Source: Acidobacteriota bacterium
GTDB taxonomy: Bacteria; Acidobacteriota; Vicinamibacteria; Vicinamibacterales; CAVVIG01
Direction: 5' to 3'
Assembly (NCBI GenBank): GCA_016195265.1
Contig: JACPZW010000074.1
Location: 29,651 to 93,650 of the forward strand
Length of the DNA: 64,000 bases
The translations under genes were made by a program, and so were the position numbers. Of this stretch, positions 10,668-52,173 are shown piece after piece. Position 1 is the first letter of the stretch. Each line of letters begins with the position of its first letter. Below the pieces are notes generated by a model. That model did not search any database and was not told the origin of the DNA. It saw nothing but the letters and a program-made list of their open reading frames with translations.

Positions 10668-10697
10668 GCCCTCAGCCCTTAGCCCTCAGCCCTGTGA
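10668..10697. repeat. 7-nt-period tract (CAGCCCT family)
   Basis: agccctcagcccttagccctcagccctgtgac makes up the entire msrP-msrQ spacer. Confidence 0.8.
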
Positions 10698-31303: not shown

Positions 31304-32740
31304 TCACTGCGAGGGACTCTGCGGCGCGCTCGCCCAGGCGGCCGGCCCCCAGCGCCGCTCCACCCGCAGCCCGTCAATCACCGTCACGCCGCCGAGACTG
31401 TTGATCGTGTGGATGCCGTCGGGCCACGCGGTCCCTGCAGGCGGATCGAGCGCAAGCACGGCCTCCTCGCGGAATCGCGTCGGCGACAAATCGACCAGCC
31501 GGTTGATCGTGATGCCGGCGCCGTAGCGCCGGGCGCAGTTCTGCGCGGGCCGGTAAATCGCGCCGCCGAGACTGAACAAGGCCCCGGCGGGCCGGCTCGA
31601 TCGCGTGTCCGACTTCACCGGATTCAACGCGTGGGGCTGCCAGGGTCCGCGCCAGGTATCGGCGAAAAACACGTAGAGATCGGTCTGGTCTTCGTCACCC
31701 TGCTTCGTGCAGAACAGCCACCACTTCCTGTCGTGCTCCACCAAGGTCGAGTCCACGAACGGAAAGTCCGTCATCAGATCGCCCTGCGCCGTCCACATTC
31801 CCGACGGCTCGTCGCACTGGAACACGGAGACGCGGCGCGCGCGATGCGTTTCCGGTAGACAGTAGAGCCGCGCACGGCCGTCACGCGGGTCGGCCTCGCG
31901 CAGCAGAAACGGGTACGACGCGCGCGACGGCAGATCCGGACGGCTGCGCGCCGAGAGCACGGTGCCGTCGCGCCGCACGCGCAGCTCGCTCAGTCCCTTG
32001 GATCGGGACGGATAGCGGTAATCCTCGACCAGCAACCGGACGTCCTCGGCGTCCACGCCGAGCAGAAACGGATCGGCATAGAAGCGATCGGCCGGTTGGC
32101 CGATGAGCCACGCGGGCGGCGGCAGGCGCCCGCGCTGCAGGACGTCTTCGACGCCGAACGGGAGGAGGCCGACGCTCCATCGCTGCCGCGTCAGCCAGCT
32201 TCGCACGGTGTCGCCAATGACGCCGCCGGCCGGCTCGGGATGCCGTGGCGGTTCGAGCAACGCGCATCCGGTGATCGACACCGGCGTCGCATCGACGATC
32301 CCGGCGTCGCCCGACAGGATCTGGCGCAAGACCCGCGCGCACCACGGCGCGACGCGATCGGGAACCGACGCCGTGCCCCACCCGTTGATCGTGCGCGCGC
32401 GATACCAGCCCTCGTGCAGCACGATGACGCGATCCGGATCGCGCGTGATGCGGCACAGCCGCGCGACGGTGCCGGCGGCGCCGCCGGCCAGCGGCGCGCC
32501 GTCGCCGAATCGATACCGCCAGACGCCGAGCGATGGATCGATCGGGCACGCGACCTCCGCGAGATCGATGAGCACGTCGCACGCGAGGCCGGCCAGCGCG
32601 GACGGCGCGCGATCGGGCTCGACGAGGTCCAGCTCGACGCCGTCGACGCCGCGCGCGGCGGCGACGGCCGCGCGATGCCATGGCCGCGCGGATCGCTCCT
32701 CAAGAATGACGCCGACGCGGACACAACGATCAGATCTCAC
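31304..32740 (-). CDS. hypothetical two-domain protein (formyltransferase-like N-region plus beta-propeller/GH43-like C-region)
   Basis: The coding-looking part of track ORF 31304..33427 begins near the GTG at 32740 (VRSDRCVRVGVILEE). The C-terminal half has repeated hydrophobic-W/F blade-like segments (RFYADPFLL, WWLFCTKQGD, WRGPWQPHALNP). The family assignment is tentative. Confidence 0.6.
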   Translation of the reverse strand: MRSDRCVRVGVILEERSARPWHRAAVAAARGVDGVELDLVEPDRAPSALAGLACDVLIDLAEVACPIDPSLGVWRYRFGDGAPLAGGAAGTVARLCRITRDPDRVIVLHEGWYRARTINGWGTASVPDRVAPWCARVLRQILSGDAGIVDATPVSITGCALLEPPRHPEPAGGVIGDTVRSWLTRQRWSVGLLPFGVEDVLQRGRLPPPAWLIGQPADRFYADPFLLGVDAEDVRLLVEDYRYPSRSKGLSELRVRRDGTVLSARSRPDLPSRASYPFLLREADPRDGRARLYCLPETHRARRVSVFQCDEPSGMWTAQGDLMTDFPFVDSTLVEHDRKWWLFCTKQGDEDQTDLYVFFADTWRGPWQPHALNPVKSDTRSSRPAGALFSLGGAIYRPAQNCARRYGAGITINRLVDLSPTRFREEAVLALDPPAGTAWPDGIHTINSLGGVTVIDGLRVERRWGPAAWASAPQSPSQ

Positions 32741-32761
32741 GCGGCGGTAGAATATCGCATC

Positions 32762-33610
32762 GTGTCCCAACGCGAGGCCCGCCGCACGGTGCTCTCGGCG
32801 GCCGACCACTCCTACGCGCGCACGCTGTTCCAGCTGCTGCTGAGCGCCGAGCGCCACGGCGCCCACACCCAGTGTGCGTGGACCGTCTTCGATCTCGGGC
32901 TCACGCCGGGCGATCGCGCGACGCTCGGCTCGCACTTCCCGTGGTGCCGCGTCGAGAGGTTCCCGTTCGACGCGCACCCGCCGCACGTGCGCGCGCTGGC
33001 GTCCTGCGCGTGGAAGCCGGTGGTGGTCGACGATGTCCTGGCGCGCGACGGCGGCCTGGTCATTTGGCTCGACAGCGCGTCGCTGCTCCACGCCGGACTC
33101 GATGACGCCTTCGCGCGCGTCGCCGCCGACGGTCTGTTCACGCTCGTCGGACAATCGCCCGCGCGGCGCTGGTGCCATCCTGCAACATTCGAATGCATGC
33201 GCACGCCTGAGTCCGATCGCGATCGGCCGTGCCGCTCGGCCGGCGTTCTCGGGTTCTCGAGCGAGCCCCCCGCGGTGCGCGACCTCGTCGCGGAGTGGCG
33301 CCGGCTCGCATTGATCCCCGGCTGCCTCGCGCCGCCGGGCGCCGGCCGAAGCAACCATCGCTACGATCAGGCGATCCTCACGAACCTGCTGCACGCGTAC
33401 GCGCGCGAGCGCGGTCTCAGGCTGCACGACGACGAAGTGGACATCTCGTCCACGCGCCAGGTCAGGTGGGTCTCGACGCGCAACGCCGTCGCGCCCTGGG
33501 TGCCGCTCGCGGCGGATCCCCTCGTGCGCGCGTACTACGCGGCGTACAAGCTGGGCGACCGCCTGGTGCTGCGCGCTCGCGCCGGCCTGACGCCGAGCCG
33601 CGCGCGGTGA
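32762..33610 (+). CDS. hypothetical protein, possibly a DUF1647-like nucleotide-sugar transferase
   Basis: The coding-looking part of track ORF 32096..33610 begins at the GTG at 32762 (VSQREARRTVLSAADHSYARTLFQLLLS). It contains NHRYDQAILTNLL. The family assignment comes from memory only. Confidence 0.5.
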   Translation: MSQREARRTVLSAADHSYARTLFQLLLSAERHGAHTQCAWTVFDLGLTPGDRATLGSHFPWCRVERFPFDAHPPHVRALASCAWKPVVVDDVLARDGGLVIWLDSASLLHAGLDDAFARVAADGLFTLVGQSPARRWCHPATFECMRTPESDRDRPCRSAGVLGFSSEPPAVRDLVAEWRRLALIPGCLAPPGAGRSNHRYDQAILTNLLHAYARERGLRLHDDEVDISSTRQVRWVSTRNAVAPWVPLAADPLVRAYYAAYKLGDRLVLRARAGLTPSRAR

Positions 33611-33620
33611 CGCGGAAGGA

Positions 33621-34343
33621 TTACGGCACGACGCCGCGGAGGCTCGTATCCACGCGCGTGCCCGCGTAGAGCGCCGAAAAGACCTGGTCGGCCACGTTGC
33701 GCTCGTCCGGCGCGCGACGGCGCTTGAGCGTGGGATCGTCGGGAAATTGCTCGGCGCCGCGCGCCCAGGCGTCGCGGGCCTTGGCCGGGTCCTCGAGCCG
33801 CCAATATCCGTCGCCGAGCGATACGTAGACGCGCGCCAGCAGAAGGGCGGGCGTGTCGGGTGTGACCAGCGTCAGCGCCCGGTTCAAATCCCCGATGCCG
33901 CGCGGGATGCGCTTGAAGATGAAGTTGTTGTAGTAGAGATTCACGACGCCGCGGACGTAGTACGCGAGCACCGACGGCTTGAGCTCGATGGACTTCGTCA
34001 GGCTGTCCATGGCGTCGCGCCCGAGATAGAGCCGGCGGATGTCGCCGGCGACGGGCACCTTGTCCACGCAGGCGAGCGCGTGGCTGATCAGGATGTTCGG
34101 GCCCCTCCCCTTGCGCTTGGACAGCCGCTCGAGCGTGTCGATCGCGCGGTCGAACTGGCTCGAGGCAATCGCCAGCTGCCGGTAGTCCGCGGCCACCCGC
34201 AGGTTCTCGGGATTGGCCGCCACCGCCTGCTCGAACTCCGCGAGCTTCACGAGATCGGCGCGTCCGGCCTGCGCCGTCAACACCGCGCCCCCGCACACGC
34301 ACGCCAGCAGAGCGGGAACCAGCCGCGCCCGGCGTCTCCGCAT
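33621..34343 (-). CDS. TPR-like lipoprotein
   Basis: MRRRRARLVPALLACVCGG (lipobox LLAC) followed by helical-repeat-like sequence. Its ATG overlaps the upstream barrel's TGA by 1 nt (TGATG). The track merges it into an 820-aa ORF whose upstream part is a shadow frame. Confidence 0.7.
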   Translation of the reverse strand: MRRRRARLVPALLACVCGGAVLTAQAGRADLVKLAEFEQAVAANPENLRVAADYRQLAIASSQFDRAIDTLERLSKRKGRGPNILISHALACVDKVPVAGDIRRLYLGRDAMDSLTKSIELKPSVLAYYVRGVVNLYYNNFIFKRIPRGIGDLNRALTLVTPDTPALLLARVYVSLGDGYWRLEDPAKARDAWARGAEQFPDDPTLKRRRAPDERNVADQVFSALYAGTRVDTSLRGVVP

Positions 34344-36817
34344 CAGCGCTCGAACCGTAGCTGCAGCCGGAACTGACGGTACTCGGAGTTGTAGAACGTG
34401 CCGAACGCCGGCGAGCTGATGTTGGCCTGCACGTCCACCGGGTTGAAGGACGCGAGGGCGTTGTAGGCCCGAATGCCGATCCACGGGGCAAGCTTGAAGA
34501 TATGAAAGCGGTGCTCGAGGCCCAGATCGAGATGGAACCGGTTCGGCAGGCGATAGCTGTTCCGCGGTCCGACGAAGTCGAGGGCGTCGTTGACGATCGA
34601 ATACGGCAGGCCCGTCCGCCAGTCGAGAATGCCGATGACCAGCCAGCGCGGCGACGGCATCAGGTGGCCGCGCGCGAACAGCCGGTGCGGCACGTCCGTC
34701 GTCGCGGGACCGGATTGGTTCGGTCCGATGATGGGCCACATCATCGTGTCGAAATACCGCGCGAACGCGTTGAGGTCGCTCTCGGCGAACGCGCGGGAGT
34801 ACGACACGTTCAGGTCGGCCGCCGGCGATCGCGCGTAGTGAATGCCCGCTTCGAGCGCGCGGTACACCGCTTCGCCCGAGCTGTCGAGCAGCAGCTGCCC
34901 GACGCCGGCGCGCTGCAGCGTATCGACGATGAGCTCGTGGCCGTCGCGGCGCTCGAGCAGGCCGGCGTGGACGGACCAGCGGGCCGTCCAGCGATGGTCG
35001 TACGAGATGTCCCACGTCCGGCTGCGCGCCGTCCGCAGCTCGGGGTCGGTCACGTGCGTGAACGGCACCTGCGAGAGCAGGCTGGCGCCGTCCGCGGCGA
35101 AGCGCGAGTCGACGAACGTCTCGAACTGCGCGAACGCGCCCGCCGCCGACGGCGTACGTTCGAAGAACAGGCCGTAGCCGCCACGCAGAACTTCGCTGCC
35201 CGACGCGTTCAGCAGCAGCGCCGCGCCGACGCGCGGTGTCAGGTTCCACCGAGCGACCACGCCGTCGCGGTCGAGCCGGGCGCCGTACTCGAGGTACCAC
35301 CGCGTGGACGGCTGCCAGCGGTCCTGCGCGAAGATCGCCAGGTCCGTGCTGCCGAGCTGCTGCGCGGTCGCCGGACTGAAGTCGAGCCGGCGCGACAGCG
35401 TTCCGTCGGGCCGCCGGATCAGCACCGGGCGGCTCGCGCTCATCCCGTCGTAGCCGTTGACCAGCACGTCGATGCCGCCCTTGTACAAGTGCAGGCCGCC
35501 CGACGCGGTCGCGGCCGACCCCGCAATCGTCTGGATCCACTGGAAGGTGGACAGCGCGCGGCTCTGCGTGTTGTAGAAATTTCCGAGCGTGGTGTCCGGG
35601 TACAGCTGCATCAGCGCGGCGCCCTGCCCCGCCAAATCCGTGCGCGACGCGCGCCACTGCACGGTGGACTCGCCGATGAGCCGATCGGTCCACAGCGCGC
35701 GCTCGGTCAGCGAGACGTGCTTCACGCGCTCGCGGAGGTTGACCGCGGCCTCCGGCGGCGTGAACGTGCCGAGTGACGCGTAGTCGCTGACGCTCGGAAA
35801 CAGCCCGACATGGCCGATGAGCGAATGGCGCGCCGTGATATTCGCGTCCACGCGCGAGAACGAGCTCAGCCAGTGCGTGGTCTGCAGCTCGTTCTGCGGG
35901 CGGCTCGGTACGTCGTCGCTGCTGTAGCGGTACTGACCGGTCTGTTCGAGGAAGAGCTTGTTCGGAATGATCGGCCCGCCCGTCTCGACGCGGGGGCCGA
36001 AGCCGGCGATGCCCTGGACGTTCCAGTCCTCCTGGCGTTTGGTCCGGAACGTCGGATCGAGATTGTTCAGCCGCAACCGCCACTGATCGCCGGCCCTGCG
36101 CGTCTGGATGACGACCAGGCCCGACGCGAACCGCCCGTACTCGACCGCGTACGGATTCGGCAGCACCGACACCGAATCGATCGCATCGTCGGGCAGCGTC
36201 AGGTGCACGAGGCCCATGCCCGGATCCGCGAGCGTCGTCGCGCCGATCTGCACGCCCGACTGCGTCGGCCGTCCACCTTTGATGCTCATCCCGCCCGGCA
36301 CTTCGATCACGGTGGCGAGCAGGCGCATCGCGGCGCCCAGCCCGCCGCCGGGCGCCAGCTTGTCCGTTTCCTTGTCGCTGATCGTGTCCGCCTTGGCGAG
36401 CGTGTCGCCGCTCGACACGATCGACCGCGGCGCGACGACGTCGACCGTGTCGGTCAGCGTGGCAATGGCGAGGTCGATCAGCACGGTGGTCGACCTGCCG
36501 GCCACGACGGTCGCACTGAGGGCGATCGCCGTGAACCCTTCGAGCGAGGCCACGACGCTGTATTTGCCTTCGGGGATCCCGTCGGCCCGGTAGCGGCCGT
36601 CGCCTTCGCTCACCAGCGACGCGACTTCGCGATTGACGGCAAAGATGACGATCTTCACGCCCGGCAACACGACGGTCCCGTTGAGCGTCGTGACGACGCC
36701 TTCAATCGAACCCGCCACGTCCTGTGCCTGCGCGCGCGCGGCGCTTGCGCACACCACGGCCACGGCCAGCACCACGGCCGGGACGAAGCGCCGCGGGAGT
36801 CCAGACCGTAGCTTCAC
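34343..36817 (-). CDS. outer-membrane CarboxypepD_reg / plug / beta-barrel protein (Oar-like TonB-dependent transporter family), paralog 1
   Basis: Signal peptide, CarboxypepD_reg region (GVVTTLNGTVVLPGVKIVI...GRYRADGIPEGKY), plug (SIKGGRPTQSGVQIG...LPNPYAVEYGRFASGLVVIQTRRA) and about 550 aa of barrel ending in LRFER. Confidence 0.85.
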   Translation of the reverse strand: MKLRSGLPRRFVPAVVLAVAVVCASAARAQAQDVAGSIEGVVTTLNGTVVLPGVKIVIFAVNREVASLVSEGDGRYRADGIPEGKYSVVASLEGFTAIALSATVVAGRSTTVLIDLAIATLTDTVDVVAPRSIVSSGDTLAKADTISDKETDKLAPGGGLGAAMRLLATVIEVPGGMSIKGGRPTQSGVQIGATTLADPGMGLVHLTLPDDAIDSVSVLPNPYAVEYGRFASGLVVIQTRRAGDQWRLRLNNLDPTFRTKRQEDWNVQGIAGFGPRVETGGPIIPNKLFLEQTGQYRYSSDDVPSRPQNELQTTHWLSSFSRVDANITARHSLIGHVGLFPSVSDYASLGTFTPPEAAVNLRERVKHVSLTERALWTDRLIGESTVQWRASRTDLAGQGAALMQLYPDTTLGNFYNTQSRALSTFQWIQTIAGSAATASGGLHLYKGGIDVLVNGYDGMSASRPVLIRRPDGTLSRRLDFSPATAQQLGSTDLAIFAQDRWQPSTRWYLEYGARLDRDGVVARWNLTPRVGAALLLNASGSEVLRGGYGLFFERTPSAAGAFAQFETFVDSRFAADGASLLSQVPFTHVTDPELRTARSRTWDISYDHRWTARWSVHAGLLERRDGHELIVDTLQRAGVGQLLLDSSGEAVYRALEAGIHYARSPAADLNVSYSRAFAESDLNAFARYFDTMMWPIIGPNQSGPATTDVPHRLFARGHLMPSPRWLVIGILDWRTGLPYSIVNDALDFVGPRNSYRLPNRFHLDLGLEHRFHIFKLAPWIGIRAYNALASFNPVDVQANISSPAFGTFYNSEYRQFRLQLRFER

Positions 36818-36851: not shown

Positions 36852-37448
36852 CTACGCCGAGTGGGTTTTCAAGGTGGCGCGCGCCCGAAAGCGCGCAGTC
36901 AGTTCGGTCGGCGACGGATCGACCCGGCCAATCCCAGGCTGATTGCCGCGCTCCACGTCCACGACGAGCATCGCGGGCCCGCGTGTGGAAAACCATGATT
37001 GCAGCGCGCCGGCCAGCGCGTGTTCGTCGCGCACGCGGACGACGGAGCGGTACCCCGCGGCGCGCGCGACGGCGTCGAGCGGCACGCGGTCTGAAATCGT
37101 CCGCTGATCGCCGGTCGATCCGTGCGCGGCGTTGTCGAAGACGATGTGATAGAAGTTCGCCGGCGCGGCGGCCGCGACGCTGCCGAGCGTGCCCATGTTC
37201 ATCAGCACGTTACCGTCGCCGTCGAAGACGACGACCGTGCGCGCCGGCTGGACGATCGCGAGCCCGAGTCCAATCGACGAGGCGAGGCCCATCGAGCCGA
37301 TCATGTAGAACCGCGACGGTGTGTCGGCATGCGCGTACAGCTCGCGCCCGATCATGCCGTTGCAGACGACGGTCAGGCAGTCCGGTCCGTTCGCGGCCGC
37401 GGCATCCACGGCATCGGCCGCGCGCGCGACCGCATAGGCGCGCGTCAC
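36852..37448 (-). CDS. phosphonopyruvate/sulfopyruvate decarboxylase family, beta (TPP-binding) subunit
   Basis: GSMGLASSIGLGLA...VFDGDGNVLMNMG (the GDG-X-N TPP motif). The GTG start overlaps the alpha-subunit TGA (GTGA). Confidence 0.8.
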   Translation of the reverse strand: MTRAYAVARAADAVDAAAANGPDCLTVVCNGMIGRELYAHADTPSRFYMIGSMGLASSIGLGLAIVQPARTVVVFDGDGNVLMNMGTLGSVAAAAPANFYHIVFDNAAHGSTGDQRTISDRVPLDAVARAAGYRSVVRVRDEHALAGALQSWFSTRGPAMLVVDVERGNQPGIGRVDPSPTELTARFRARATLKTHSA

Positions 37449-37951
37449 GACTGCAGCCTGCCCTTTCCGACGACGAGCGCGACGGGCCTGCGCGTCTCGT
37501 GCATGGTGCACGTGAGGCGGTCAATGTCCGGTGCAAGGGTCGGCGGCTCGAACACGGCGAACGGGATCCGCAGCAATTGCAGCAACGGCGTCATCACATC
37601 GCCCATGATGAGGTGCTCGGGCGCGTCATTGCCGCTTTTGCCGCCCTCGCCGCGCCAGCTGATCACGAGCAGCGCCGGGATGTCGTAGATCTGGTGCAGC
37701 GAGACGAGCGCGTTCATGCTGACGCCGAGCCCGCTGTTCTGCATGAAGACGACCGGCTGCCGGCCGCCGAGGTATGCGCCGGCCGCGATTCCCAACGCGG
37801 AGTCCTCGCGCACGGCGCTGAGGTAGCCGTAGCGCGGCTCGGCGTCGAGGATGCGCGTCACGCCCTCGAAGAGCGAGCACGGAACGCCCGTGAAGTAGTT
37901 GTAGCCGTGCTGTTCGAGCAGGTCGAGGAACCGCCGCGAAGGACTAGCCAA
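37445..37951 (-). CDS. phosphonopyruvate/sulfopyruvate decarboxylase family, alpha (pyrimidine-binding) subunit
   Basis: FLDLLEQHGYNYFTGVPCSLF...REDSALGIAAGAYLGG...FMQNSGLG. The proposed TTG start at 37951 overlaps the upstream gene's end by 8 nt. Confidence 0.75.
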   Translation of the reverse strand: MASPSRRFLDLLEQHGYNYFTGVPCSLFEGVTRILDAEPRYGYLSAVREDSALGIAAGAYLGGRQPVVFMQNSGLGVSMNALVSLHQIYDIPALLVISWRGEGGKSGNDAPEHLIMGDVMTPLLQLLRIPFAVFEPPTLAPDIDRLTCTMHETRRPVALVVGKGRLQS

Positions 37952-39623
37952 CTTCGGTCCACGCCCGGCGGTAGTCGTCGAACGTATCGACTTCGAGCCA
38001 GCCCTGGTAGATGCCGACCGAGCCGACCGCATGGCCGCGCCGGATGACCTCGTGCAGCAGGTCGGTGAGCTTCGCCGTCCGCAGCGACGGCGACTCGTGC
38101 ACCGGGGCGGACTCGCCGCGGTCGCGCAACTCGCGATAGACCTCGCCGAGGATCTGGCACCCGCGCGCCGACAGCTTCGCCATGCCGATGAACTCGGCGG
38201 TCGCCTGGCCCGCGTCGAGCCCCTGCCCGATCGCCGTGATCCGCACGGGCTGATCGTCGGCGAGGAAGCGGTGGTGGCGCCGCGGCGTGGGCGTCTCGAT
38301 CACGAGGTCGGCGGATGCGCCCTCGCGCGTCGCGCGCGTGTCCGGCCACGAGCGATCGCAGACGAGCGCGATGTCCTCGTCGGACTGCAGCAGCCGGTCC
38401 AGGATGTTCTTGTCGAACAGAATGTCGCCGTACATCACGATCACCGCGCCGGACAGCTCCGCGCCCGCGCGCAGCAGGCTCTCGAGCTCGCCGCTCTCCT
38501 CGAACGCGTCGTTGTCGTAATAGCGGACGTTGGGGATGGTGATCTGTTCTTTCTTGTAGCCGCGCACGACGGCGATCGGGCGGACGCCGGCCTGCTGCAG
38601 CGCGTCCACCTGGCGCTCGAGGATCGGCTTCCCTTTGACTTCGAGCATCGCCTTCGGCCGATCCGCGACGAGCGGCATCAGCCGGCGGTCGAAGCCCGCG
38701 GCCAGAATCACCGCCTTGACCGTCTCGGCGTCGGCCGGCAAGTATTCTTTCTCGTCGGCCTTCATCTGCGCGAGGTTCACGAGCCGGTAGACCTCGGCGA
38801 GCGGCACGATGCGATCCTCGACCGCGGACGCGCGTCCGGTCTCGCGAATCGTCTTCAGGGCATCCTGCGCCGCGCGAATCGCCGCGCGCATGCCCTGGTT
38901 CGCGAAGATCATCATCTTGAAGCCGGCGCGCGCCAGCTCGTCCACGCTCGCGTCGTTGTAGGTCGTCGGCACGCAGACGAGCGGCGTCAGGCGATCCCAT
39001 TCGGCCGCGAACTGCGCGATCTCGTCCATCGTGTGGTGCTTGGAGTGGATCAACACGGCGTCGGCGCCCGCGTCGGCGTACGCGCGGCCGCGGCGCAGCG
39101 CTTCCTCCATGCCCAAGCCGGCGATCAGTGCTTCGGTGCGCGCGACGATCACGAGCTCGCCGGCGGCGGCGTCGACGGCCGACGTGATCTTCAGGACCTG
39201 CTCGTCGGTGTCGGTGAGCAGGCGCTTCACGCCGCCGTAGAAACTGCAGCGCTTCGGAAAGACGTTGTCTTCGATGCAGATGCTGGCGATGCCGGCGGCG
39301 GCGAACGCGCGCACGGTCCGGATCGCGTTGATCGAGTTGCCGAAACCCGTGTCGCAATCGGCCATCACCGGGAGGCTGGTCGCCTCGTTCATGATCTGCG
39401 CGGCGTGGAGCGTCTCGGTCATCGTGAGGATGCTCGCGTCCGGCACGGCGTAGCTCGCGCTGATCTCGAAGCCGCTCGCCCAGACCGCGTCGTACCCGGC
39501 TTCCTCGACGATCCGCGCCGTCAGCCCGTCGTGCGCGCCGCCGAGCACGATCGGCCCGGGCCTGGCGAGCAGCCGGCGGAGCGCCGCAGCTTTCGAGAGA
39601 AGCGGTGAAGAACGTTTCGTCAT
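37944..39623 (-). CDS. PEP-mutase-like (isocitrate lyase/PEP mutase superfamily) domain fused to a C-terminal LicC/PntC-like nucleotidyltransferase
   Basis: The N-terminal 290 aa include GAHDGLTARIVEEAGYDAVWASGFE, DCDTGFG, ICIEDNVFPKRCSF and LIHSK. The C-terminal 260 aa include AVILAAGFDRRLMPLVADRPKAMLEV...GWLEVDTFDDY. The start is MTKRSSPLL at 39623. Confidence 0.85.
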   Translation of the reverse strand: MTKRSSPLLSKAAALRRLLARPGPIVLGGAHDGLTARIVEEAGYDAVWASGFEISASYAVPDASILTMTETLHAAQIMNEATSLPVMADCDTGFGNSINAIRTVRAFAAAGIASICIEDNVFPKRCSFYGGVKRLLTDTDEQVLKITSAVDAAAGELVIVARTEALIAGLGMEEALRRGRAYADAGADAVLIHSKHHTMDEIAQFAAEWDRLTPLVCVPTTYNDASVDELARAGFKMMIFANQGMRAAIRAAQDALKTIRETGRASAVEDRIVPLAEVYRLVNLAQMKADEKEYLPADAETVKAVILAAGFDRRLMPLVADRPKAMLEVKGKPILERQVDALQQAGVRPIAVVRGYKKEQITIPNVRYYDNDAFEESGELESLLRAGAELSGAVIVMYGDILFDKNILDRLLQSDEDIALVCDRSWPDTRATREGASADLVIETPTPRRHHRFLADDQPVRITAIGQGLDAGQATAEFIGMAKLSARGCQILGEVYRELRDRGESAPVHESPSLRTAKLTDLLHEVIRRGHAVGSVGIYQGWLEVDTFDDYRRAWTEVG

Positions 39624-39675
39624 GGATTCGACGATACCACAGTCACGCCGCGATAAAGTTAAAGTACGTGCCACC

Positions 39676-40785
39676 GTGCTGATACAACCTGTCCGGGGAC
39701 GCCGCGCGTTCCGCGAGTTCATCAATTACGCCTACGAGAGAAACGCCGCCGATCCGCACTGGATTCCTCCGCTGCGGCTCTCCGAACACGAGCGGCTGAA
39801 GCCGTCCAAGAACCCGTTCTTCGCGCACGCCGACGTCGAGCTGTTTCTCGTCCGCCGCGACAACGGCGTGGTCGGGCGCATCGCGGCCATCGACGATCGG
39901 CTGCACGAAAAGACACACGGCGACCAGACGGCGATGTTCGGGTTCTTCGAAGCGGCGGACGCCGAGGCCGCGCGCGCGCTGCTGGCCACGGTCGAACGGT
40001 GGGCGGCGGCGCGCGGCCGCCGGCGCGTGCGCGGACCGATCAATCCGTCGCTCAACGAAAGTTGCGGCCTGCTGATCGACGGCTTCGACACAGACTCGAT
40101 GCTGCTGATGCCGCACAATCCGCCGGAGTACGCCGCGTTTATCGAGTCTGCGGGCTACGCCAAGGGGATGGATCTCTACGCCTGGCTGTACGAGATCGCG
40201 GCGCAACCGCCCGAGGTCATCGCGCGGCTCGCGGCGCGCCTGCGCGAGCGGCTGCAGCTGGTCCTGCGTCCGCTGAAGCTGTCCGAGTTCACGGCCGAGG
40301 TCGAACGCCTGCGCGACATCTACTGCGGCGCGTGGGAGCACAACTGGGGATTCGTGCCGCCGACGCGGGAGGAATTCCAGCGACTCGCCACCGAGCTCAA
40401 GCCGATCTTCGATACGCGCGCCGCCGTCGTCGCCGAATCGAACGGCCGGATGGTGGCCTGCGCCGTGGCGGTGCCCGACATCAACCAGGCGCTCAAGGGG
40501 ACGAGCGGCCGGCTGTTCCCGAGCGCGCTGTTCCGGCTGCTGCTGCGCCACCGCTACATCGACCAGGCGCGGCTGCTGCTGCTCGGCGTCGCGCCCGAGT
40601 TCCGCACGCGCGGCCTCTACCCGCTGCTGATGTTCGAATTGCACCGCCAGATCGCGGGCGGACCCTACAAGCGGATGGAGTTCTCGTGGGTGCTCGAGCA
40701 CAACCGCGACATCAACCAGCCCGCCGAACAAGCCGGCGCGCGCCGCTACAAGACCTACCGCATCTACGAGAAGCTCCTCGGTTGA
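39676..40785 (+). CDS. GNAT-like N-acyltransferase family protein (candidate ceramide-synthase-type step)
   Basis: About 370 aa, including FREFINYAYERNAADPHWIPPLR...GFFEA...RGPINPS...LLLGVAPEFRTRGLY (acyl-CoA N-acyltransferase fold features). The start is uncertain: the track ATG at 39622 overlaps the divergent pepM-like ATG, so the GTG at 39676 is preferred. Confidence 0.65.
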   Translation: MLIQPVRGRRAFREFINYAYERNAADPHWIPPLRLSEHERLKPSKNPFFAHADVELFLVRRDNGVVGRIAAIDDRLHEKTHGDQTAMFGFFEAADAEAARALLATVERWAAARGRRRVRGPINPSLNESCGLLIDGFDTDSMLLMPHNPPEYAAFIESAGYAKGMDLYAWLYEIAAQPPEVIARLAARLRERLQLVLRPLKLSEFTAEVERLRDIYCGAWEHNWGFVPPTREEFQRLATELKPIFDTRAAVVAESNGRMVACAVAVPDINQALKGTSGRLFPSALFRLLLRHRYIDQARLLLLGVAPEFRTRGLYPLLMFELHRQIAGGPYKRMEFSWVLEHNRDINQPAEQAGARRYKTYRIYEKLLG

Positions 40786-41132: not shown

Positions 41133-43601
41133 CTATCGCTCGAACCGGAACTGCAGCCGGACGCCGCGGTTGTCCGAGTTGTAGAACGTGCCGTACGACG
41201 GCGCGCTGGTGTTGGACTGGACGTCCGCCGGCAGGAACGCGCCGAGGATGTTGGTCACGCGGATGCCGATCCACGGCTGGAACCGCAGCACCTTGATCCG
41301 CCGCTCGAGGCCGAGCTCCAGCCGTGCCGCATCCGGAAAACGCTGCGCGTTGCGCGGCTCGACGAAGTCCAGCATCTCGTTGACGGTCGAGTACGGCACG
41401 CCCGTCCGCCAGTCGAATACCCCGAGCAACAGCCAGCGGGGCGCCGGCATCAGGCGGCCCCGCACGAACAGCCGGTGCGGCACGTCGGCGTTCAGCGGCC
41501 CGTACGCATTGGCGCCGATGACCGGCGCGAGCACGGTGTCGAAGAAATTCGTGAGCGCGTTCAGGTCGCCCTGCGCCGACGACCGCACGTACGACACGTC
41601 GACGTCGGCGGAGGCCCCGCGCGTGAAGTGCACGCCGACTTCGCCGTCGCGGTAACTCGACGCGCCGCCGCTCGAGAGCGTGAGCGCGGCGCCCGTCGGC
41701 GTCGCCGACGGCGTCACGATCAGCTCCTGCCGCCCCTCGCGCTGGAGATACGCCGCGCGGAACGCCCAGCGCGCGTTCAACCGGTACTCGTAGCCGACGT
41801 CCCACGTCCGGCTCCGCGGCGTCTCGAGGTTCGGCGCCGCGATCCGCGCCACGCGCACGGCAGGGCCGAGGGGCGTGCGGCCGTCCGCGGCGAACCGCCG
41901 GTCCGTCTCGCGCTCGAACGTCTCGAACGCGCCGGCGACCGCCGGCGTGCGCTCGTAGAACAGGCCCCAGCCGCCGCGCAGGACGGAGCTGCCTGACTCA
42001 CTCAGAAGCACGGCCGTTCCAAGGCGCGGCGACACATTGACCCGGCCGAGAATCCCGTCGCGATCGAGACGGCCGCCGGCTTCGACGTACCAGCGCGGGC
42101 GCAGCTGCAGCCGATCCTGCGCGAACACCGCCGCTTCGGTGCTCCCCACCGACTGACTCGTGGCGGCGTCGAAGTCGATGCGCCGCGCGGTCGTGCCGTC
42201 ACCGCGGTCGATCACAACCGACCGGCTCTCGCTCGTGCCGTCGTACTCTAGGCGAATCACGTCCAGGCCGACCTTGAACAGGTGCACGCCGCCCAGGCCG
42301 TCGCGGTCCGTCGTCACGACACTGACGAGCTGGTACGCCGTGGAGTTGCGGTGCTGACTGTTGAAGAAGTTGCCCAGCGTCGTATCCGGCTGCAGCTCCA
42401 TCGGCGCGGTCCCCTGGGGAACCACGTCCGTGCGCGACTGGAAGAACTGGATCGTCGTCTCGCTGACCGTCTTGCCGGTCCACATCGCGCGTTCGGTGAC
42501 GGCCGCCTGCGTGGCGAATGTGTGGAAGTCGATCGACGCGTCCGGCGGAATGAACGTACCGAGCGTCGCAAATGTCGACTGGCTCGGGAACACCCCGACG
42601 GTCGCGCCGAGCATGTGCCGCCGCGAGACGTTCGCGTCGACGCGCGTGAACGAGCTCATCGACGTCGAGACGCGCTCCTCGTCCGGGGGCCGGCTCGGCA
42701 CTTCCCCGCGGCTGTAGCGGAATTGTCCGGTCTGTTCGACAAACAGTTTGTCCTCGATCACCGGTCCGCCCGTTGCGAACCGCGGGCCCCACGCGTCGAT
42801 GTGCGTGAAGCTGAAGGGCTGGTCACGCCGGTTGCGGAACGTCGGACCGAAGCGGTTGATCCGGAACTTCCACTGATCCTTCGCGCGCCGCGTCTGGATC
42901 ACGACGAGGCCCGACGCGAACCGGCCGTACTCGACGGCATAGGGGTTCGGCAGCACCGTGACCGAATCGATCGCATCGTCGGGCAGCGCCACCTGCGCGA
43001 TCGCGGACGCGGGATCCACGACCGACGCCGCGCCCAGCTGTACGCCCGACTGGTTCGGGCGCCCGCCTTTGATGCTGACGCTGCCGTTCGGCAGCGTGAT
43101 GGCAGTTGAGAGCATCCGGACGGCGCCCTGAAAACCCGCGCCCGGCACGAACTGATCGAGCTCGCGGCTGGCAATCGCTTCCACCGTCGCCAGCGTGTTG
43201 CCGCTCGAGACGGCGGTCGTCGTCCCGACGACGTCGATCGTGTCGGAGAGCGTACCGATCGGCAGATCGACCATGACGTGCGCGGGATCGCGGTCGCTGA
43301 CGACGGCGGACTCCAGCACCGTCTCGAAGCCCTCCAGCACCGCCATCACGCGGTACGTGCCGGTCACCAGGCCGCCGACGCGAAAGCGGCCGTCGCCGTC
43401 GCTCACCACGGTCGCGACAATCCGGCCGGTCGCGTCGATGACGAACACGCTGGCGCCGCCGAGCGGCGTCGTGTGCTGCGTCGAGATCGCGCCTTCAATG
43501 GCGCCGAGCGGCACCTGTGCCGCTGCGAGGGCCGAAGATGCGGCGAGCAGCGCGGCGACCAGCAATGGATGATGCCACCGGACGCGGCGCATCACTCTCA
43601 T
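41133..43601 (-). CDS. outer-membrane CarboxypepD_reg / plug / beta-barrel protein (Oar-like TonB-dependent transporter family), paralog 2
   Basis: Same architecture as 34343..36817, with long identical peptides (LPNPYAVEYGRFASGLVVIQTRRA). It ends in FRFER. The start MRVMRRVRWHHPLLVAALLAASSALAAAQ at 43601 overlaps the upstream TGA (ATGA). The track ORF extends spuriously to 43922. Confidence 0.85.
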   Translation of the reverse strand: MRVMRRVRWHHPLLVAALLAASSALAAAQVPLGAIEGAISTQHTTPLGGASVFVIDATGRIVATVVSDGDGRFRVGGLVTGTYRVMAVLEGFETVLESAVVSDRDPAHVMVDLPIGTLSDTIDVVGTTTAVSSGNTLATVEAIASRELDQFVPGAGFQGAVRMLSTAITLPNGSVSIKGGRPNQSGVQLGAASVVDPASAIAQVALPDDAIDSVTVLPNPYAVEYGRFASGLVVIQTRRAKDQWKFRINRFGPTFRNRRDQPFSFTHIDAWGPRFATGGPVIEDKLFVEQTGQFRYSRGEVPSRPPDEERVSTSMSSFTRVDANVSRRHMLGATVGVFPSQSTFATLGTFIPPDASIDFHTFATQAAVTERAMWTGKTVSETTIQFFQSRTDVVPQGTAPMELQPDTTLGNFFNSQHRNSTAYQLVSVVTTDRDGLGGVHLFKVGLDVIRLEYDGTSESRSVVIDRGDGTTARRIDFDAATSQSVGSTEAAVFAQDRLQLRPRWYVEAGGRLDRDGILGRVNVSPRLGTAVLLSESGSSVLRGGWGLFYERTPAVAGAFETFERETDRRFAADGRTPLGPAVRVARIAAPNLETPRSRTWDVGYEYRLNARWAFRAAYLQREGRQELIVTPSATPTGAALTLSSGGASSYRDGEVGVHFTRGASADVDVSYVRSSAQGDLNALTNFFDTVLAPVIGANAYGPLNADVPHRLFVRGRLMPAPRWLLLGVFDWRTGVPYSTVNEMLDFVEPRNAQRFPDAARLELGLERRIKVLRFQPWIGIRVTNILGAFLPADVQSNTSAPSYGTFYNSDNRGVRLQFRFER

Positions 43602-44368
43602 TCTGCGCTCCGCGACGCCTGAAGCCTCGGCCAGACGTCGTCCCTTACGCGGGCCAAGTGCTGCTCGTCGTCGACTTCGCCCCACAGCAGATCGGGCACG
43701 AACACCGCGCCAATGGCGCGCTCGGCGGCGATGGCGACCAAGGCATCGGTCTCGTAGTCCATGCGCTCGTGGCCGCACCGGTCCACGAACGCGGTGAACG
43801 CCCGCTGCATCGCCTGCGCGCCCGCGGCCGACAGGCGCGTGATGCCGACGAATTCTCCGGTGATGCTCGGCAGGTCGGCGGCGCGCTTGCTCATCGACCG
43901 CAGCCGGCCGTTGGGCGCGCATACCCAGACTTCATCGCCGGCCCCGGTCGGACCTGAAAGGAGCGTCGCGTCCGGGAACGAAGGCGACGAGAGGATCGCC
44001 GTCACGGCTCTCGCTTCATACACGATGTCGCTTTCGAGCACGAGGACGCCGCCGGCGCGATCGCCCGTGGAGACGGCGTCGAGCGCCCGCGCGAGCGACG
44101 CCATGCTGCCGGACGAGGCGTACCGCTCGTTCAGGACGGTCCGCACCCCAGGCCGCCCGGCCGCAAACCGCTCGTACTGATCGGCGCAGTACCCCGCGAC
44201 GATGGTCACCTCGGAGATACCCGCGTCGCCCAGGACGTGGACTGACCGGCCGACGAGCGTCTCGCCGTCGATCTCGATCAAGCCCTTCGGCCGCGCGTCC
44301 ACGATGGATCGGAGGCGCGTGCCCATGCCCGCGGCCAGAATGATCGCACGGCTGTCACGCGCGGCCAA
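43598..44368 (-). CDS. LicC/PntC-like nucleotidyltransferase (stand-alone)
   Basis: AIILAAGMGTRL...RPKGLIEI...WGEVDDEQHL. The TTG start lies 11 nt upstream of the phnW-like stop. Confidence 0.85.
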   Translation of the reverse strand: MAARDSRAIILAAGMGTRLRSIVDARPKGLIEIDGETLVGRSVHVLGDAGISEVTIVAGYCADQYERFAAGRPGVRTVLNERYASSGSMASLARALDAVSTGDRAGGVLVLESDIVYEARAVTAILSSPSFPDATLLSGPTGAGDEVWVCAPNGRLRSMSKRAADLPSITGEFVGITRLSAAGAQAMQRAFTAFVDRCGHERMDYETDALVAIAAERAIGAVFVPDLLWGEVDDEQHLARVRDDVWPRLQASRSAE

Positions 44369-45437
44369 TCGCCGCTCCCAGGCACTCGACGAAACGCCGG
44401 TAGTCCTCCTCGCGCACGTCGCCCATGGTCGCGACGCGGAACAACGAGGCCGCCAGGGGCCCCTGCCCCGCGTAAATGACGAAGCCGTCGCGCTTCAGCG
44501 CGTCGTGGAGCGCGGGATAGCCGAGCTGGCGCGGCAGCGAGATCGCGGTCAGCGTCGTGGAGCGCAGCGCCGGCGGCAGCAGCAGATCGAGACCGAGCGC
44601 CGCGACGCCGTCGCGGACGATCGCCGCCGCGCGGCCGTACCGGGCGACGCGGCCGTCCACGGTCTCGTCGATGAGCTCGTCGAGCGCGGCGCGCAGGGCG
44701 TAGGCGATCTGCACGGCCGGCGTGAAGGGCGTCGATCGCTTTTCCTGCTCGTCGTGATGCCGCGGCAGGTGCAGATACAGCGTGCGCTCGGGGTAGCCGC
44801 GCATGGCGTCCATGAACTCGCGCTTGACCAGGGCGAACGACAGGCCCGGCAGTCCCTGCACGCACTTGTTCGCGGTGCACACGACGGCGTCGGGCGCCAG
44901 CCGCGCGAAGTCGAACGCCTCGCCCGCCAGCGCGCTGACGGCGTCCACCAGCAGACGCGTGCCCTTCAGCTTGCAGAGCGCGGCGATTGGCGCGAGCTCG
45001 TTGAGCAGACCCGTCGTCGTCTCATGGTGCACGATCGCCAGCGCATCGTAGCGCGTGTGGGCGAGGCGCAGCGCCAGCGCGTCGATGGCCGGGCGTTCCG
45101 TCGGCGCGCACGCCACGACCTCGTGCTCGATGCCGTGCGCGCGCGCGATCCGCGCGATCCGCTCGCCATAGACACCGTTCTGGACGACCAGCAGCCGCCC
45201 GCCGGCCGGCACGGCGGAACTCGTCATGGCTTCCACCATCGCGGTGCCGCTGCCGGTCAGCAGCACCGACGTGTACTCGCCGCGCGGCGTGCGAAACGCT
45301 TCGAGCAGGCGCCGGCGGATGCCGTCCTGCAAATCGAAGAACTCGGGCTCGCGGTGACAGAGATCGGGACCGGCGAGCGCGTCGCGGACGCGCGGGCTGA
45401 CGTTCACCGGACCCGGATTGAGCAGGATGGTCCTCAT
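44355..45437 (-). CDS. phnW: 2-aminoethylphosphonate:pyruvate aminotransferase-like class V aminotransferase
   Basis: LLNPGPVNVSPRVRDAL, and CTANKCVQGLPGLSF (PLP lysine context as in PhnW). Confidence 0.8.
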   Translation of the reverse strand: MRTILLNPGPVNVSPRVRDALAGPDLCHREPEFFDLQDGIRRRLLEAFRTPRGEYTSVLLTGSGTAMVEAMTSSAVPAGGRLLVVQNGVYGERIARIARAHGIEHEVVACAPTERPAIDALALRLAHTRYDALAIVHHETTTGLLNELAPIAALCKLKGTRLLVDAVSALAGEAFDFARLAPDAVVCTANKCVQGLPGLSFALVKREFMDAMRGYPERTLYLHLPRHHDEQEKRSTPFTPAVQIAYALRAALDELIDETVDGRVARYGRAAAIVRDGVAALGLDLLLPPALRSTTLTAISLPRQLGYPALHDALKRDGFVIYAGQGPLAASLFRVATMGDVREEDYRRFVECLGAAIGRA

Positions 45438-45843: not shown

Positions 45844-46635
45844 TCAGACGCCGATCGCCAGAACGAGCGCCCAGATCGCCAGCGCGAGCGCGGCGCCCGC
45901 GACGACGTCCACGGTGTAGTGGTAGCGGCCGGCCACGCACGCGACGCTGATGCTCGCGGCGAGCGCGAACAGGATCGCGCCCGTCCACGGCATCGCCCCG
46001 GCGACGGCCATCGCGACCGCGAGCGAGCCGGCCACGTGTCCGCTCGGAAACGTGTTCGCGCCGATCGTGAACGTGCTGACCATCTGCGACGCCATCTGGT
46101 GGATCGCGCGTTCGCGCTGGCTCGACGGCCGCTCGATCGCCCAGGGCGGGCGCGTCTGAATGACGCTGAGCGGCGCAAACGCCCCGAATTCGGCGGCGAT
46201 GACCATCGTCCAGTAGTGATCCGCCATCGCGCCGCGGCCCGTCCACAGCAGCGCGGCGAAGCCGGCGGGAATCAGCAGAAAGCAGCCGACGTAGACGATT
46301 TCCAGGTACGCCAGCACCACGCGCGGCCAGTGCGCGAACCGCGTCGTCGGATCCCCCAGCAGCCGGTGATCCCACGCCATCAGCCACGCTTCGAACGACG
46401 GGGACGAGCCGACGAAGAACCGGCCCGACACCCAGTAGCCGACGAGGATCATGATCGCCGGCGCCCAGTCGCGCACCATCGGGCCCGCGCCGCGCGGCAG
46501 GATCCAGATCCCGGCGCCCATGGCGACGCCGACGATCGTGACTTGCGCGCGGCGCGACGCGGGCAGCGGCCTGAGCCACGCCGCCGCCGCCATCACACCG
46601 AAATATCCCGCCGCGAGCCCCTCCGAAAAACGCAC
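45844..46635 (-). CDS. PAP2_C / sphingomyelin-synthase-like phospho-headgroup transferase (polytopic membrane protein)
   Basis: Multiple TM segments, with FPSGH (46036..46050) and RYHYTVDV (45904..45927) matching the SMS/IPC-synthase D3/D4 motifs (SGH, HYTxDV). The start is uncertain (46635 GTG, 46593 ATG or 46689 ATG). Confidence 0.75.
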   Translation of the reverse strand: MRFSEGLAAGYFGVMAAAAWLRPLPASRRAQVTIVGVAMGAGIWILPRGAGPMVRDWAPAIMILVGYWVSGRFFVGSSPSFEAWLMAWDHRLLGDPTTRFAHWPRVVLAYLEIVYVGCFLLIPAGFAALLWTGRGAMADHYWTMVIAAEFGAFAPLSVIQTRPPWAIERPSSQRERAIHQMASQMVSTFTIGANTFPSGHVAGSLAVAMAVAGAMPWTGAILFALAASISVACVAGRYHYTVDVVAGAALALAIWALVLAIGV

Positions 46636-46669
46636 GGTATCGACCTCTCGTGATGCTAACGTATGTCGC

Positions 46670-47635
46670 GTGTCCACCGCCGCGTACACCCGCGTCGAGT
46701 ACGCCGAGCCGCACGTCGCGCGCGGGCGTCAGATTCTCGCGGCGCATCCGGAACTGCGCGCCCTCGCGGGACCGCGGGCGGCGAGCGCGGTGTGGATCGT
46801 GGTGCTCGTGACGGTGCAGATCGCCCTAGCCGTCGCGCTCGGGAATCAATCGTGGCACATCTGGCTGCCGCTGGCCTACCTCGCGGGCGCCACGATCGAT
46901 CACGCACTGTGGGCGCTCATTCACGAGTGCGCCCACAATCTCATCTTCGGCGCGCGGCTCGGCAATCGCGCCGCGGCGCTCACCGCGAATCTGCCGCTGG
47001 TCTTTCCCGCGGCCATGTCGTTCTGCAAGTACCACCTGCTCCACCATCGCCACATGGGCGAGATGGACCTCGACGCTGATCTCGCCGGCCCCGACGAAGC
47101 GCGGATGGTCGGCCGGTCGTCGTTGCTCAAGACCCTGTGGCTGGCGGCGTTCGTGCTCGTCGTCGGCACGCTGCGGCCCCGGCGTCTGACGCGCGTGCCG
47201 TTCGCGGATCGGTGGACGGCGATCAATATGGTGATTCAGGCGATTGCCGTCGCCGCGCTCGTCTGGTGGGCCGGCTGGGCGCCGCTGAAGTACCTCGTCG
47301 CCTCGTCGGTCCTCGCGATCGGCTTCCACCCGCTCGGCGCGCGGTGGATTCAGGAACATTACGTGTTCGCCCCCGGGCAGGAGACGTACTCCTACTACGG
47401 CCCGCTCAACCGCGTGTCGTTCAACGTGGGCTACCACAACGAGCATCACGATCTGGTGACGGTTCCCTGGTCCCAGCTCCCGCGGATCCGCGCCGGCGCG
47501 CCGGAATTCTACGACTCGCTGACGTCTCACGGCTCGTGGACGAAGCTGCTCGTCGCGTTTCTCCGGGACCGCGACGTGACGCTCTTCAGCCGCATCGTCC
47601 GTCCGCTGCGGGGCGAGCACGCGCGCGAGCCGTGA
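46670..47635 (+). CDS. sphingolipid delta4-desaturase (DEGS/DES1-like) fatty acid desaturase
   Basis: N-terminal Lipid_DES-like EPHVARGRQILAAHPELRAL and three His boxes (HECAHN, HLLHHRH, HNEHHD). The GTG start is at 46670. Confidence 0.85.
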   Translation: MSTAAYTRVEYAEPHVARGRQILAAHPELRALAGPRAASAVWIVVLVTVQIALAVALGNQSWHIWLPLAYLAGATIDHALWALIHECAHNLIFGARLGNRAAALTANLPLVFPAAMSFCKYHLLHHRHMGEMDLDADLAGPDEARMVGRSSLLKTLWLAAFVLVVGTLRPRRLTRVPFADRWTAINMVIQAIAVAALVWWAGWAPLKYLVASSVLAIGFHPLGARWIQEHYVFAPGQETYSYYGPLNRVSFNVGYHNEHHDLVTVPWSQLPRIRAGAPEFYDSLTSHGSWTKLLVAFLRDRDVTLFSRIVRPLRGEHAREP

Positions 47636-48594: not shown

Positions 48595-48673
48595 TTCAGA
48601 TTTCAGAGTTCAGAGTTCAGATTGATTGCAGATTGGATTCAGAATCTTAAATCTGAACTCTGAAATCTGAAAT
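48595..48673. terminator. palindromic TCTGAAA-family tract filling the gap between convergent genes (probable bidirectional terminator)
   Basis: ttcagatttcagagttcagagttcagatt ... aatctgaactctgaaatctgaaat. The two halves are reverse complements and occupy the entire intergenic space. Confidence 0.55.
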
Positions 48674-49879: not shown

Positions 49880-49905
49880 CAGCCCTTTGCTCTCTGCCCT
49901 CAGCC

Positions 49906-52172: not shown

Positions 52173-52173
52173 C

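Follow-up and report, generated by a model that had tools for sequence, protein, structure and literature searches.

A phosphonate gene cluster of an Acidobacteriota bacterium encodes a putative PEP mutase with an EDN…RCS gating loop

Can a protein that lacks the residues by which phosphoenolpyruvate (PEP) mutases (PepM) are recognised still be a PEP mutase? The question is raised by a window of 64,000 nucleotides, the whole stretch analysed here, from an Acidobacteriota bacterium (GenBank assembly GCA_016195265.1, contig JACPZW010000074.1, positions 29,651 to 93,650 of the forward strand). An open reading frame (ORF) at 37944..39725 on its minus strand encodes an N-terminal PEP_mutase domain followed by an NTP_transf_3 domain. 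The initial annotation, made by a model from the letters of the sequence, had read I-E-D-N-V-F-P-K-R-C-S-F at residues 117-128 or thereabouts of this protein, and that reading is exact to the base: minus-strand positions 39275..39240 are ATC GAA GAC AAC GTC TTT CCG AAG CGC TGC AGT TTC. Counted from the Met at 39623, a start that gives 559 aa, equal in length to the full-length homolog P0241, these codons are residues I117 to F128, of which E118 to F128 occupy 39240..39272. The diagnostic PepM motif EDK-X5-NS is indeed absent, as had been claimed, with N120 in place of its Lys and C126 in place of its Asn, both in the sequence itself and in alignments to PepM structures, where the Asn falls opposite Lys116 and the Cys opposite Asn122 of the mussel enzyme. 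The comparisons described below nevertheless make it probable that the domain is a working PEP mutase, converting PEP to phosphonopyruvate, with a gating loop that is built differently.

The variant loop is shared by every close relative in which a loop could be recognised. The mutase domain (296 aa) was searched against 5.8 billion proteins and the 120 best clusters were taken (53-87% identity); 118 had a recognisable loop, and in all 118 it took the variant form, described by the pattern ED[N/S/T/A]xFPKRCS[F/L]Y. Position 116 (mussel PepM numbering is used throughout for aligned positions) was N in 98 of these homologs, S in 9, T in 4, A in 3 and R in 3, position 121 was R in 113, position 122 was C in 115, N in 2 and S in 1, position 123 was S in 117, and position 125 was Y in all 118. 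Tyr125 and the Cys are the best-kept markers of the clade, and the third position of the motif is variable. In contrast, among 120 matches to a profile of solved PepM and phosphonopyruvate hydrolase (PPH) sequences, the Lys and the Asn of the canonical motif were each present in 120/120, position 121 was mostly T, and position 125 was L, H or I. A genome scan limited to one genome per species yielded 80 related loci, all of which encode xEDNxFPKRCSFY or a near variant; the Cys codon is TGC in 71 and TGT in 9, and the Ser that follows uses both AGY and TCN codons. Because it is kept in 80/80 loci with synonymous codon use, the motif is under purifying selection at the amino-acid level. The possibility, raised alongside the initial annotation, that these codons reflect faulty sequencing or assembly is ruled out and is given no weight here, the motif being common to 80 independent assemblies and 118/120 protein clusters with both Cys codons in use.

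Carriers of the loop were found in Acidobacteriota, including several Vicinamibacterales, and in Planctomycetota, Binatia, Nitrospirales and many Polyangiales. Those in Myxococcota include Sorangium cellulosum So ce56, other Sorangium strains and Minicystis rosea, and a Terriglobia metagenome-assembled genome (L001) encodes a protein 92% identical to that of the window in full synteny with it. Carriers with complete genomes include Sorangium cellulosum So ce56 (NC_010162.1, L008), Minicystis rosea DSM 24000 (CP016211.1, L018), OZ246887.1 and OZ245001.1. These surveys support the view that the EDN…RCS variant defines a large, multi-phylum and previously uncharacterised clade, referred to here as CS-type.

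Two further occurrences were recorded. A fungal CS-type protein, P0026 (59% identical, loop EDNIFPKRCSFY), is encoded at 10001..10981 of locus L081 in Aspergillus violaceofuscus KZ825156.1, next to genes for a zinc alcohol dehydrogenase, an FAD-binding oxidase, major facilitator superfamily (MFS) transporters and Zn-cluster regulators; this locus could be an unrecognised fungal phosphonate cluster. Two metagenome-assembled contigs labelled Klebsiella pneumoniae / Enterobacteriaceae (L066, CAMBZJ010000034.1; L079, CAZXFE010000088.1) carry a CS-type cluster, and their remaining best matches are deltaproteobacterial or Binatia-like. Their labels probably reflect mis-binning or a wrong taxonomic assignment.

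Among proteins of known structure, the closest to the domain are PepM enzymes. The best match in a sequence search of the PDB was PepM 5unc (5.4e-77), with mussel PepM 1m1b at 1.6e-61 and PPH at 4.9e-61, while the C-C lyases started at 2e-38, an E-value at least 38 orders of magnitude weaker than that of 5unc. An AlphaFold (AF2) monomer model built from 31 clade members (pLDDT 94.4, pTM 0.91) has the isocitrate-lyase/PEP-mutase (beta/alpha)8 barrel fold, and its top structural matches in Foldseek were 5unc (TMq 0.94, root mean square deviation 1.4) and 1pym (TMq 0.92), with 47% identity to 5UNC and 37-39% to the mussel enzyme over the structural alignment. Individual residues were compared in an alignment of 153 domain sequences, comprising 50%-identity representatives of the library, PDB sequences and selected matches. 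S46, D58/D85/D87/E114, K120, S123, R159 and H190 are retained in the CS-type group; of the residues whose part in catalysis is known, the clade has lost only K116 and N122. In the window protein the Mg2+ cluster is D62, D89, D91 and E118; of 21 CS-type representatives, all have D58, D85 and E114, and 19 have D87. Arg159 and His190, which hold the phosphoryl group, become R162 and H193, and the gating-loop Lys120 and Ser123 become K124 and S127, the Lys again in all 21 representatives.

In this alignment the CS-type group is set apart from canonical PepM at six places: L48F, K116N, T121R, N122C, (L/H/I)125Y and Q130R. Y129 of the window protein is invariant and R134 nearly invariant among its homologs, at positions where canonical PepM has L/H/I and Gln. 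All six lie on or against the gating loop, and together they amount to a coordinated remodelling of the substrate lid. The initial annotation had described the change as two substitutions. Both of these, N120 and C126, are real, but the column analysis indicates that they belong to a remodelling of six positions.

Gene neighbourhoods provide a second line of evidence. The phosphonate context claimed for the window is borne out by a split phosphonopyruvate decarboxylase (Ppd), a 2-aminoethylphosphonate (AEP) transaminase (AEPT) and PntC-type genes around the fusion gene. The AEPT gene and that of a second nucleotidyltransferase lie 4-6 kb from it on the same strand. The fusion partner had been called PntC-like, and a PF12804 match does occupy ORF residues 338-456, C-terminal of PEP_mutase, a PntC-type domain being predicted from its family and position. 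PF12804 is the commonest fusion partner of Ppm (PMC6697681). The same fusion is present in 78/80 related loci, and Ppd consists of separate alpha and beta subunits in the window and in essentially all related loci, as in the sulfopyruvate decarboxylase ComDE. A sulfonate pathway built on such a decarboxylase was considered and rejected, since the Ppd models score higher (136.9 vs 114.9 and 174.2 vs 161.7 bits) and a PhnW/AepZ-type aminotransferase is present in the window. We know of no route from the PepM fold to sulfopyruvate. Context was counted in the 57 of the 80 loci that extend at least 4 kb on both sides (full loci): both Ppd halves accompany the EDN...CS homolog in 42, directly downstream in 38, AEPT in 23 and a second nucleotidyltransferase in 41.

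Other CS-type proteins occur in different settings. In P0083 the domain is fused to Ppd-alpha, and the genes on its flanks encode AEPT, Ppd-beta, a TauD-family oxygenase and methyltransferases. The genes that come after P0104 encode a PF00155 aminotransferase, an ATP-grasp ligase and an MFS exporter, a layout that we take to be that of a phosphonoalanine-peptide (phosphonoalamide-like) cluster; PF00155 has been linked to phosphonoalanine in a published phosphonate survey. P0109 is found with split Ppd, AEPT and PntC, and P0035 lies in a glycan locus between a D-2-hydroxyacid dehydrogenase and a fusion of nucleotidyltransferase and aminotransferase. These last three (P0104, P0109 and P0035) are unfused, stand-alone proteins, and all adjoin phosphonopyruvate-using enzymes. 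The equilibrium between PEP and phosphonopyruvate is unfavourable to the latter, and to our knowledge every known pathway couples the mutase step to an enzyme that consumes phosphonopyruvate. Because of this coupling, the varied contexts are strong indirect evidence that phosphonopyruvate is the product of the CS-type enzymes.

Loci without Ppd were seen in Binatia (L044, L046, L051, L052, L060, L062), Nitrospirales (L065, L071) and some Polyangiales. There the fusion gene is accompanied by squalene-cyclase-like, Rieske, NUDIX, polyprenyl synthase or carotenoid-synthesis genes, or by PntC and CDP-OH transferase genes. These neighbourhoods are uninformative on the mutase step; those in Binatia and Nitrospirales recall the phosphonoterpene clusters about which there has been speculation.

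Taken together, the conserved residues suggest how a mutase with this loop might work. The reaction would be the standard one of PepM, with Mg2+-bound PEP held by the conserved residues and the phosphoryl group held during migration by Arg162 and His193. Where PepM has Asn122, Cys126 would form a hydrogen bond to the migrating group or fill the space beside it, and Arg125, Tyr129, Arg134 and Phe52 could compensate for the lost side chains of Asn122 and Lys116. The lid contacts made by Asn122, Lys116 and Gln130 in canonical PepM would then be taken over by Cys126, Arg125, Tyr129 and Arg134. The split Ppd, encoded immediately downstream, would pull the unfavourable equilibrium forward, after which AEP transaminase would make AEP. 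The fused and free nucleotidyltransferases would activate AEP, probably as CMP-AEP, and the head group would be passed to a lipid, probably ceramide given the adjacent genes. What is assumed here about the roles of Asn122 and Lys120 in PepM, beyond the paper cited below for residue 122, is general background on the enzyme.

The Cys is the main reason to consider a different chemistry. The loop had been described as a hybrid of mutase and lyase, and this description holds: in a HMMER alignment IEDNVFPKRCSFYGG of the window is in register with IEDQQLPKKCGHLNG of the lyase-type chain 4iqd, Cys opposite the Cys of K(K/R)CGH, while the same Cys pairs with Asn122 of PepM. In the lyases this Cys, which was mutated in the PrpB C123S structure 1xg3, is the general acid/base. 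Cys126 might likewise act as nucleophile or acid/base. The enzyme might then form the C-P bond through a transient thiophosphoryl-enzyme, or it might act like a lyase or hydrolase on a phosphonate or 2-keto acid that supplies the pathway, in place of a plain dissociative shift from PEP to phosphonopyruvate. The Cys is kept in 97% of the clade, beside a conserved Arg and with a Tyr and an Arg specific to the clade, and against lyase structures the domain scores 15-45 bits above two canonical PepMs. However, K-R-C is all that the loop has in common with the lyase signature EDQ...K(K/R)CGH, with EDN for EDQ and C-S-F for C-G-H, and the rest of the site is not that of a lyase: relative to 4iqd it has Ser-Phe for Gly-His, 'LIHSK' (His) for 'FPEAL' (Glu) and the PepM-type 'VPTTY' for 'NMTEF' of the NxTE segment. 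Nor do all relatives keep the thiol. P0076 has the loop of the clade with Asn at position 122 (EDN..QNS, EDNVFPKQNSFY), and its neighbours are a CDP-alcohol transferase, split Ppd and AEPT; with Ppd and AEPT nearby as for the CS type, this EDN…NS protein suggests that Cys and Asn can stand in for each other at this position. P0001, the closest homolog among the matches listed (77% identity, two contigs), has Ser there (EDN..RSS), although in this case the fusion is lost, Ppd is absent, and the gene lies directly upstream of an outer-membrane barrel gene (L089 2503..4974). When the 150 nearest representatives at 50% identity were sorted by loop, 89 were K/NS, 19 N/CS, 13 N/NS and 2 N/HS, with several other classes besides. 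The non-canonical loops occur in fusions (P0250, P0248, P0264, P0322, P0294, P0334 and P0374 of the representative library): the EDN..HS and EDN..QNS proteins are fused to NTP_transf_3, one EDQ..RNS protein to a 2-hydroxyacid dehydrogenase and another to NTP_transf_3, the EDN..RNS and EDH..RNS proteins to AMP-binding enzymes, and one EDN..TNS protein has a Fom1-like N-terminal cytidylyltransferase (CTP_transf_like). Positions 116 (K/N/Q/H) and 122 (N/C/H/S) thus vary among phosphonate-like proteins in which Ser123, Lys120, His190 and Arg159 are constant. Such variation is in keeping with a residue 122 that acts sterically or by hydrogen bonding, and it argues against an indispensable thiol nucleophile. 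Whatever the mechanism, the downstream enzymes require phosphonopyruvate. Different chemistry, the second of the two options left by the initial annotation, is therefore considered unlikely.

In a neighbor-joining (NJ) tree of the 153 domain sequences, rooted on lyase-like proteins, the EDN-type sequences (CS, NS, HS and SS) formed a basal grade nearest the root, a position that would suit a lyase-like chemistry, and the crown consisted of EDK..NS proteins and PPH, with the relatives of PPH in an EDK..D(T/S)S group of their own. The topology is weakly bootstrapped, however: exact splits were recovered in ~0-3% of replicates, and a CS-free clade with at least 85 of the 90 K/NS sequences in 37.5%. 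Because of this poor support, neither ancestry nor monophyly of the CS type is claimed, and its placement as an ancestral intermediate would be a lead and not a result. We regard it as improbable, slightly more so than different chemistry in general, that the CS type is a surviving intermediate between C-C lyases and P-C mutases in which the ancestral Cys is still catalytic, whether through S-phosphocysteine or as an enolate-gating acid/base; if it were, two mechanistically distinct routes to the C-P bond would exist on one scaffold.

Two further alternatives are less likely again. A PPH-like hydrolase, in which the Cys would protonate the enolate of pyruvate as phosphonopyruvate or PEP is split into pyruvate and phosphate, would be in keeping with the closeness of PPH, which equals that of mussel PepM, with the change from Asn to Thr that sets PPH apart from PepM at the identical loop position, and with the proton that a thiol beside C3 could deliver. 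It is very unlikely, since the relatives of PPH group apart in the tree, the NCBIfam model of PPH (TIGR02321) gives 215.2 bits with a cutoff of 374.4, and a hydrolase would be futile in the biosynthetic contexts formed by Ppd, AEPT, PntC and lipid genes, the domain itself being joined to Ppd-alpha in one protein. Least likely, by a little, is a catalytically dead domain that would only scaffold the nucleotidyltransferase or help it to dimerise, leaving phosphonopyruvate to a canonical PepM elsewhere. In favour of this, the diagnostic motif lacks two of its residues, and the search for a second PepM covered the loci; on the other side, the metal and substrate ligands are kept over more than 100 sequences at 50-77% identity, stand-alone CS-type proteins adjoin phosphonopyruvate-using enzymes, and a canonical PepM lies within 10 kb in 0/80 loci. 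Nor was a second PepM-like gene of any kind found in the window or, over 10 kb, at any of the 80 loci.

Several observations count against the proposal of a working PEP mutase itself. PepM membership is strictly unproven, since Cys126 replaces Asn122 and Asn120 replaces Lys116, two residues that define the family of its closest relative. The NCBIfam PepM model TIGR02320 scores 271.3 bits, short of its cutoff of 319.55, although it remains the best-scoring model (prpB, TIGR02317, gives 184.7 bits with a cutoff of 354.4). Asn122 has been tied to the outcome of mutase versus hydrolase reactions, PPH having Thr there (PMC7916636), so that a Cys at this position could alter the reaction. In the alignment to 4iqd, Cys126 is positionally homologous to the Cys that serves the lyases as general acid/base. 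Ppd is absent within 10 kb from 15/57 full loci, a canonical PepM elsewhere in the carrier genomes is possible, the loci alone having been covered, and a literature search found no paper that describes the CS-type loop or clade or assays a member. On balance the first option of the initial annotation, a divergent clade of PepM overlooked by motif filters, is the one that the evidence favours: the clade is large and spans several phyla, its neighbours consume phosphonopyruvate, and its members fall outside both the motif filters and the NCBIfam cutoff.

Features of the window that bear on the putative CS-type mutase and its cluster
Feature	Coordinates	Strand	Basis or remark
Variant gating-loop motif E118-D-N120-V-F-P-K124-R125-C126-S127	39243..39272	-	Counterpart of PepM EDK-X5-NS and lyase EDQ-x3-K(K/R)CG
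Remainder of the remodelled loop: F128, Y129 (39239..39237), R134 (39224..39222)	39222..39242	-	Group-specific column analysis
PEP-mutase-like domain, residues 1-296	38736..39623	-	PF13714 2.4e-57
F52 replacing canonical Leu48	39470..39468	-	Residue table
Fused C-terminal MobA-like nucleotidyltransferase domain, PntC-type position, including stop codon	37944..38735	-	PF12804 4.4e-16
Ppd alpha half (TPP_enzyme_N)	37445..38032	-	TIGR03297 8.1e-40
Ppd beta half (TPP_enzyme_C)	36852..37511	-	TIGR03297 3.8e-51; PF02775
Second, free-standing nucleotidyltransferase (PntC-like)	43598..44368	-	PF12804 2.8e-17; 29% identical to fused domain
AEP aminotransferase, PhnW/AepZ type	44355..45437	-	TIGR03301 3.8e-102, 342 bits, cutoff 360.8
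PAP2_3/PAP2_C membrane protein, like sphingomyelin/inositol phosphorylceramide synthases; candidate head-group transferase	45844..46689	-	Pfam
GNAT-like protein, 387 aa, divergent from mutase gene	39622..40785	+	Weak PF00583 match, 1.1e-3
Alpha-oxoamine-synthase-type Aminotran_1_2 (Spt-like)	within 48674..50320	-	Pfam
Acyl carrier protein (ACP)	51918..52172	+	Pfam
AMP-binding, acyl-ACP-synthetase-like (AasR-like)	49906..51576	-	Pfam
NAD-dependent epimerase/dehydrogenase (CerR-like)	within 47137..48594	+	Pfam

As called, the Ppd-alpha ORF overlaps the fusion gene by 89 nt. A conserved overlap or frameshift fusion of the two genes was considered and set aside as an ORF-calling artefact: homology starts about 30 codons in, most alignments of Ppd-alpha homologs beginning at query residues 30-39, and the true start is probably ~30 codons inside the ORF, beyond the point where the gene upstream stops. 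Two paralogous outer-membrane genes of the CarboxypepD_reg plus TonB-type beta-barrel kind, at 34343..36817(-) and 41133..43610(-), are interspersed among the phosphonate genes.

A lipid context had also been claimed for the cluster, and a ceramide-type set of Pfam families does adjoin the phosphonate genes. Five functions of bacterial ceramide synthesis have been listed (PMC11324152), and Pfam counterparts of all five are encoded in the window, together with a sphingolipid-desaturase-like gene (FA_desaturase plus Lipid_DES), a ketosynthase and a GINT1_N-like protein. The lipid gene set comprises 45844..53403 plus the GNAT-like gene and 31304..33427 (GINT1_N-like). Synteny of the PAP2 gene extends to L001-L004 and L006, the closest relatives, and the GNAT-like gene is kept beside the PepM gene in L001, L002, L004 and L006; its product is possibly an N-acyltransferase or an analogue of ceramide synthase. 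Judged from these genes, a reasonable guess at the product of the cluster would be a phosphonosphingolipid of the ceramide-AEP type, in an acidobacterium.

The new element is the enzyme variant, the architecture of the cluster being already known from Ppm-PntC phosphonolipid clusters. Published inventories keep only sequences with a perfect EDKX5NS motif (PMC6697681, PMC8942020), a filter that the CS-type clade fails; one marine study allowed up to 2 motif mismatches next to Ppd. Almost every phosphonate census, and most genome mining for phosphonate natural products, rests on the perfect motif. Because CS-type proteins score under the NCBIfam PepM cutoff, several of the closest homologs are named by NCBI merely 'isocitrate lyase/phosphoenolpyruvate mutase family protein'. 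The strict rule also misses several groups besides the CS type, because other non-canonical loops are fused to phosphonate-type partners. The CS-type clade is widespread in dominant lineages of soil and sediment, and if its members are active mutases, then phosphonate production in soils has been under-counted and unexplored gene clusters become visible, among them lipid-linked AEP, phosphonoalamide-like (in our own reading) and dehydrogenase-linked ones. Asn122 and Lys116, held to be hallmarks of the mutase, would then be dispensable, Ser123 and His190 would look like better discriminators, and the question of what separates mutase, hydrolase and lyase chemistry would be sharpened. Cultured carriers such as Sorangium and Minicystis make it directly testable.

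Four known systems offer comparisons. Canonical PepM (EC 5.4.2.9; Mytilus edulis 1M1B/1PYM, Streptomyces platensis 5UNC) has the same fold (TMq 0.92-0.94), and its gene is likewise coupled to Ppd, AEPT and nucleotidyltransferases; it reads ED-K-xFPK-(T/V/R)-N-S-(F/L)-(I/L/H)...Q where the CS type reads ED-N-xFPK-R-C-S-F-Y...R, with Phe for Leu48. PPH (PalA of Variovorax sp. Pal2, 2DUA/2HJP) is similarly close in sequence (4.9e-61) and also departs from PepM at Asn122, but it keeps EDK and has Asp-Thr-Ser, and both the loop of the CS type and its biosynthetic context differ from those of PPH, whose role we take to be catabolic. The C-C lyases (PrpB, isocitrate lyase, petal death protein, oxaloacetate hydrolase and 2,3-dimethylmalate lyase) have Lys-(Lys/Arg)-Cys at the matching loop positions, along with features of their own, namely EDQ, Cys-Gly-His, Glu for the His190 of PepM and a different substrate-binding segment. 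The architecture itself is that of the Ppm-PntC fusions (Rice et al. 2019, PMC6697681; 'Burkholderiales_CDP-OH', Li & Horsman 2022, PMC8942020), which share an N-terminal PEP_mutase with PF12804, a second free PntC, Ppd, AEPT and lipid genes, the differences being that Ppd is split here and that the lipid genes are of the PAP2/ceramide type, in some relatives alongside a CDP-alcohol phosphatidyltransferase.

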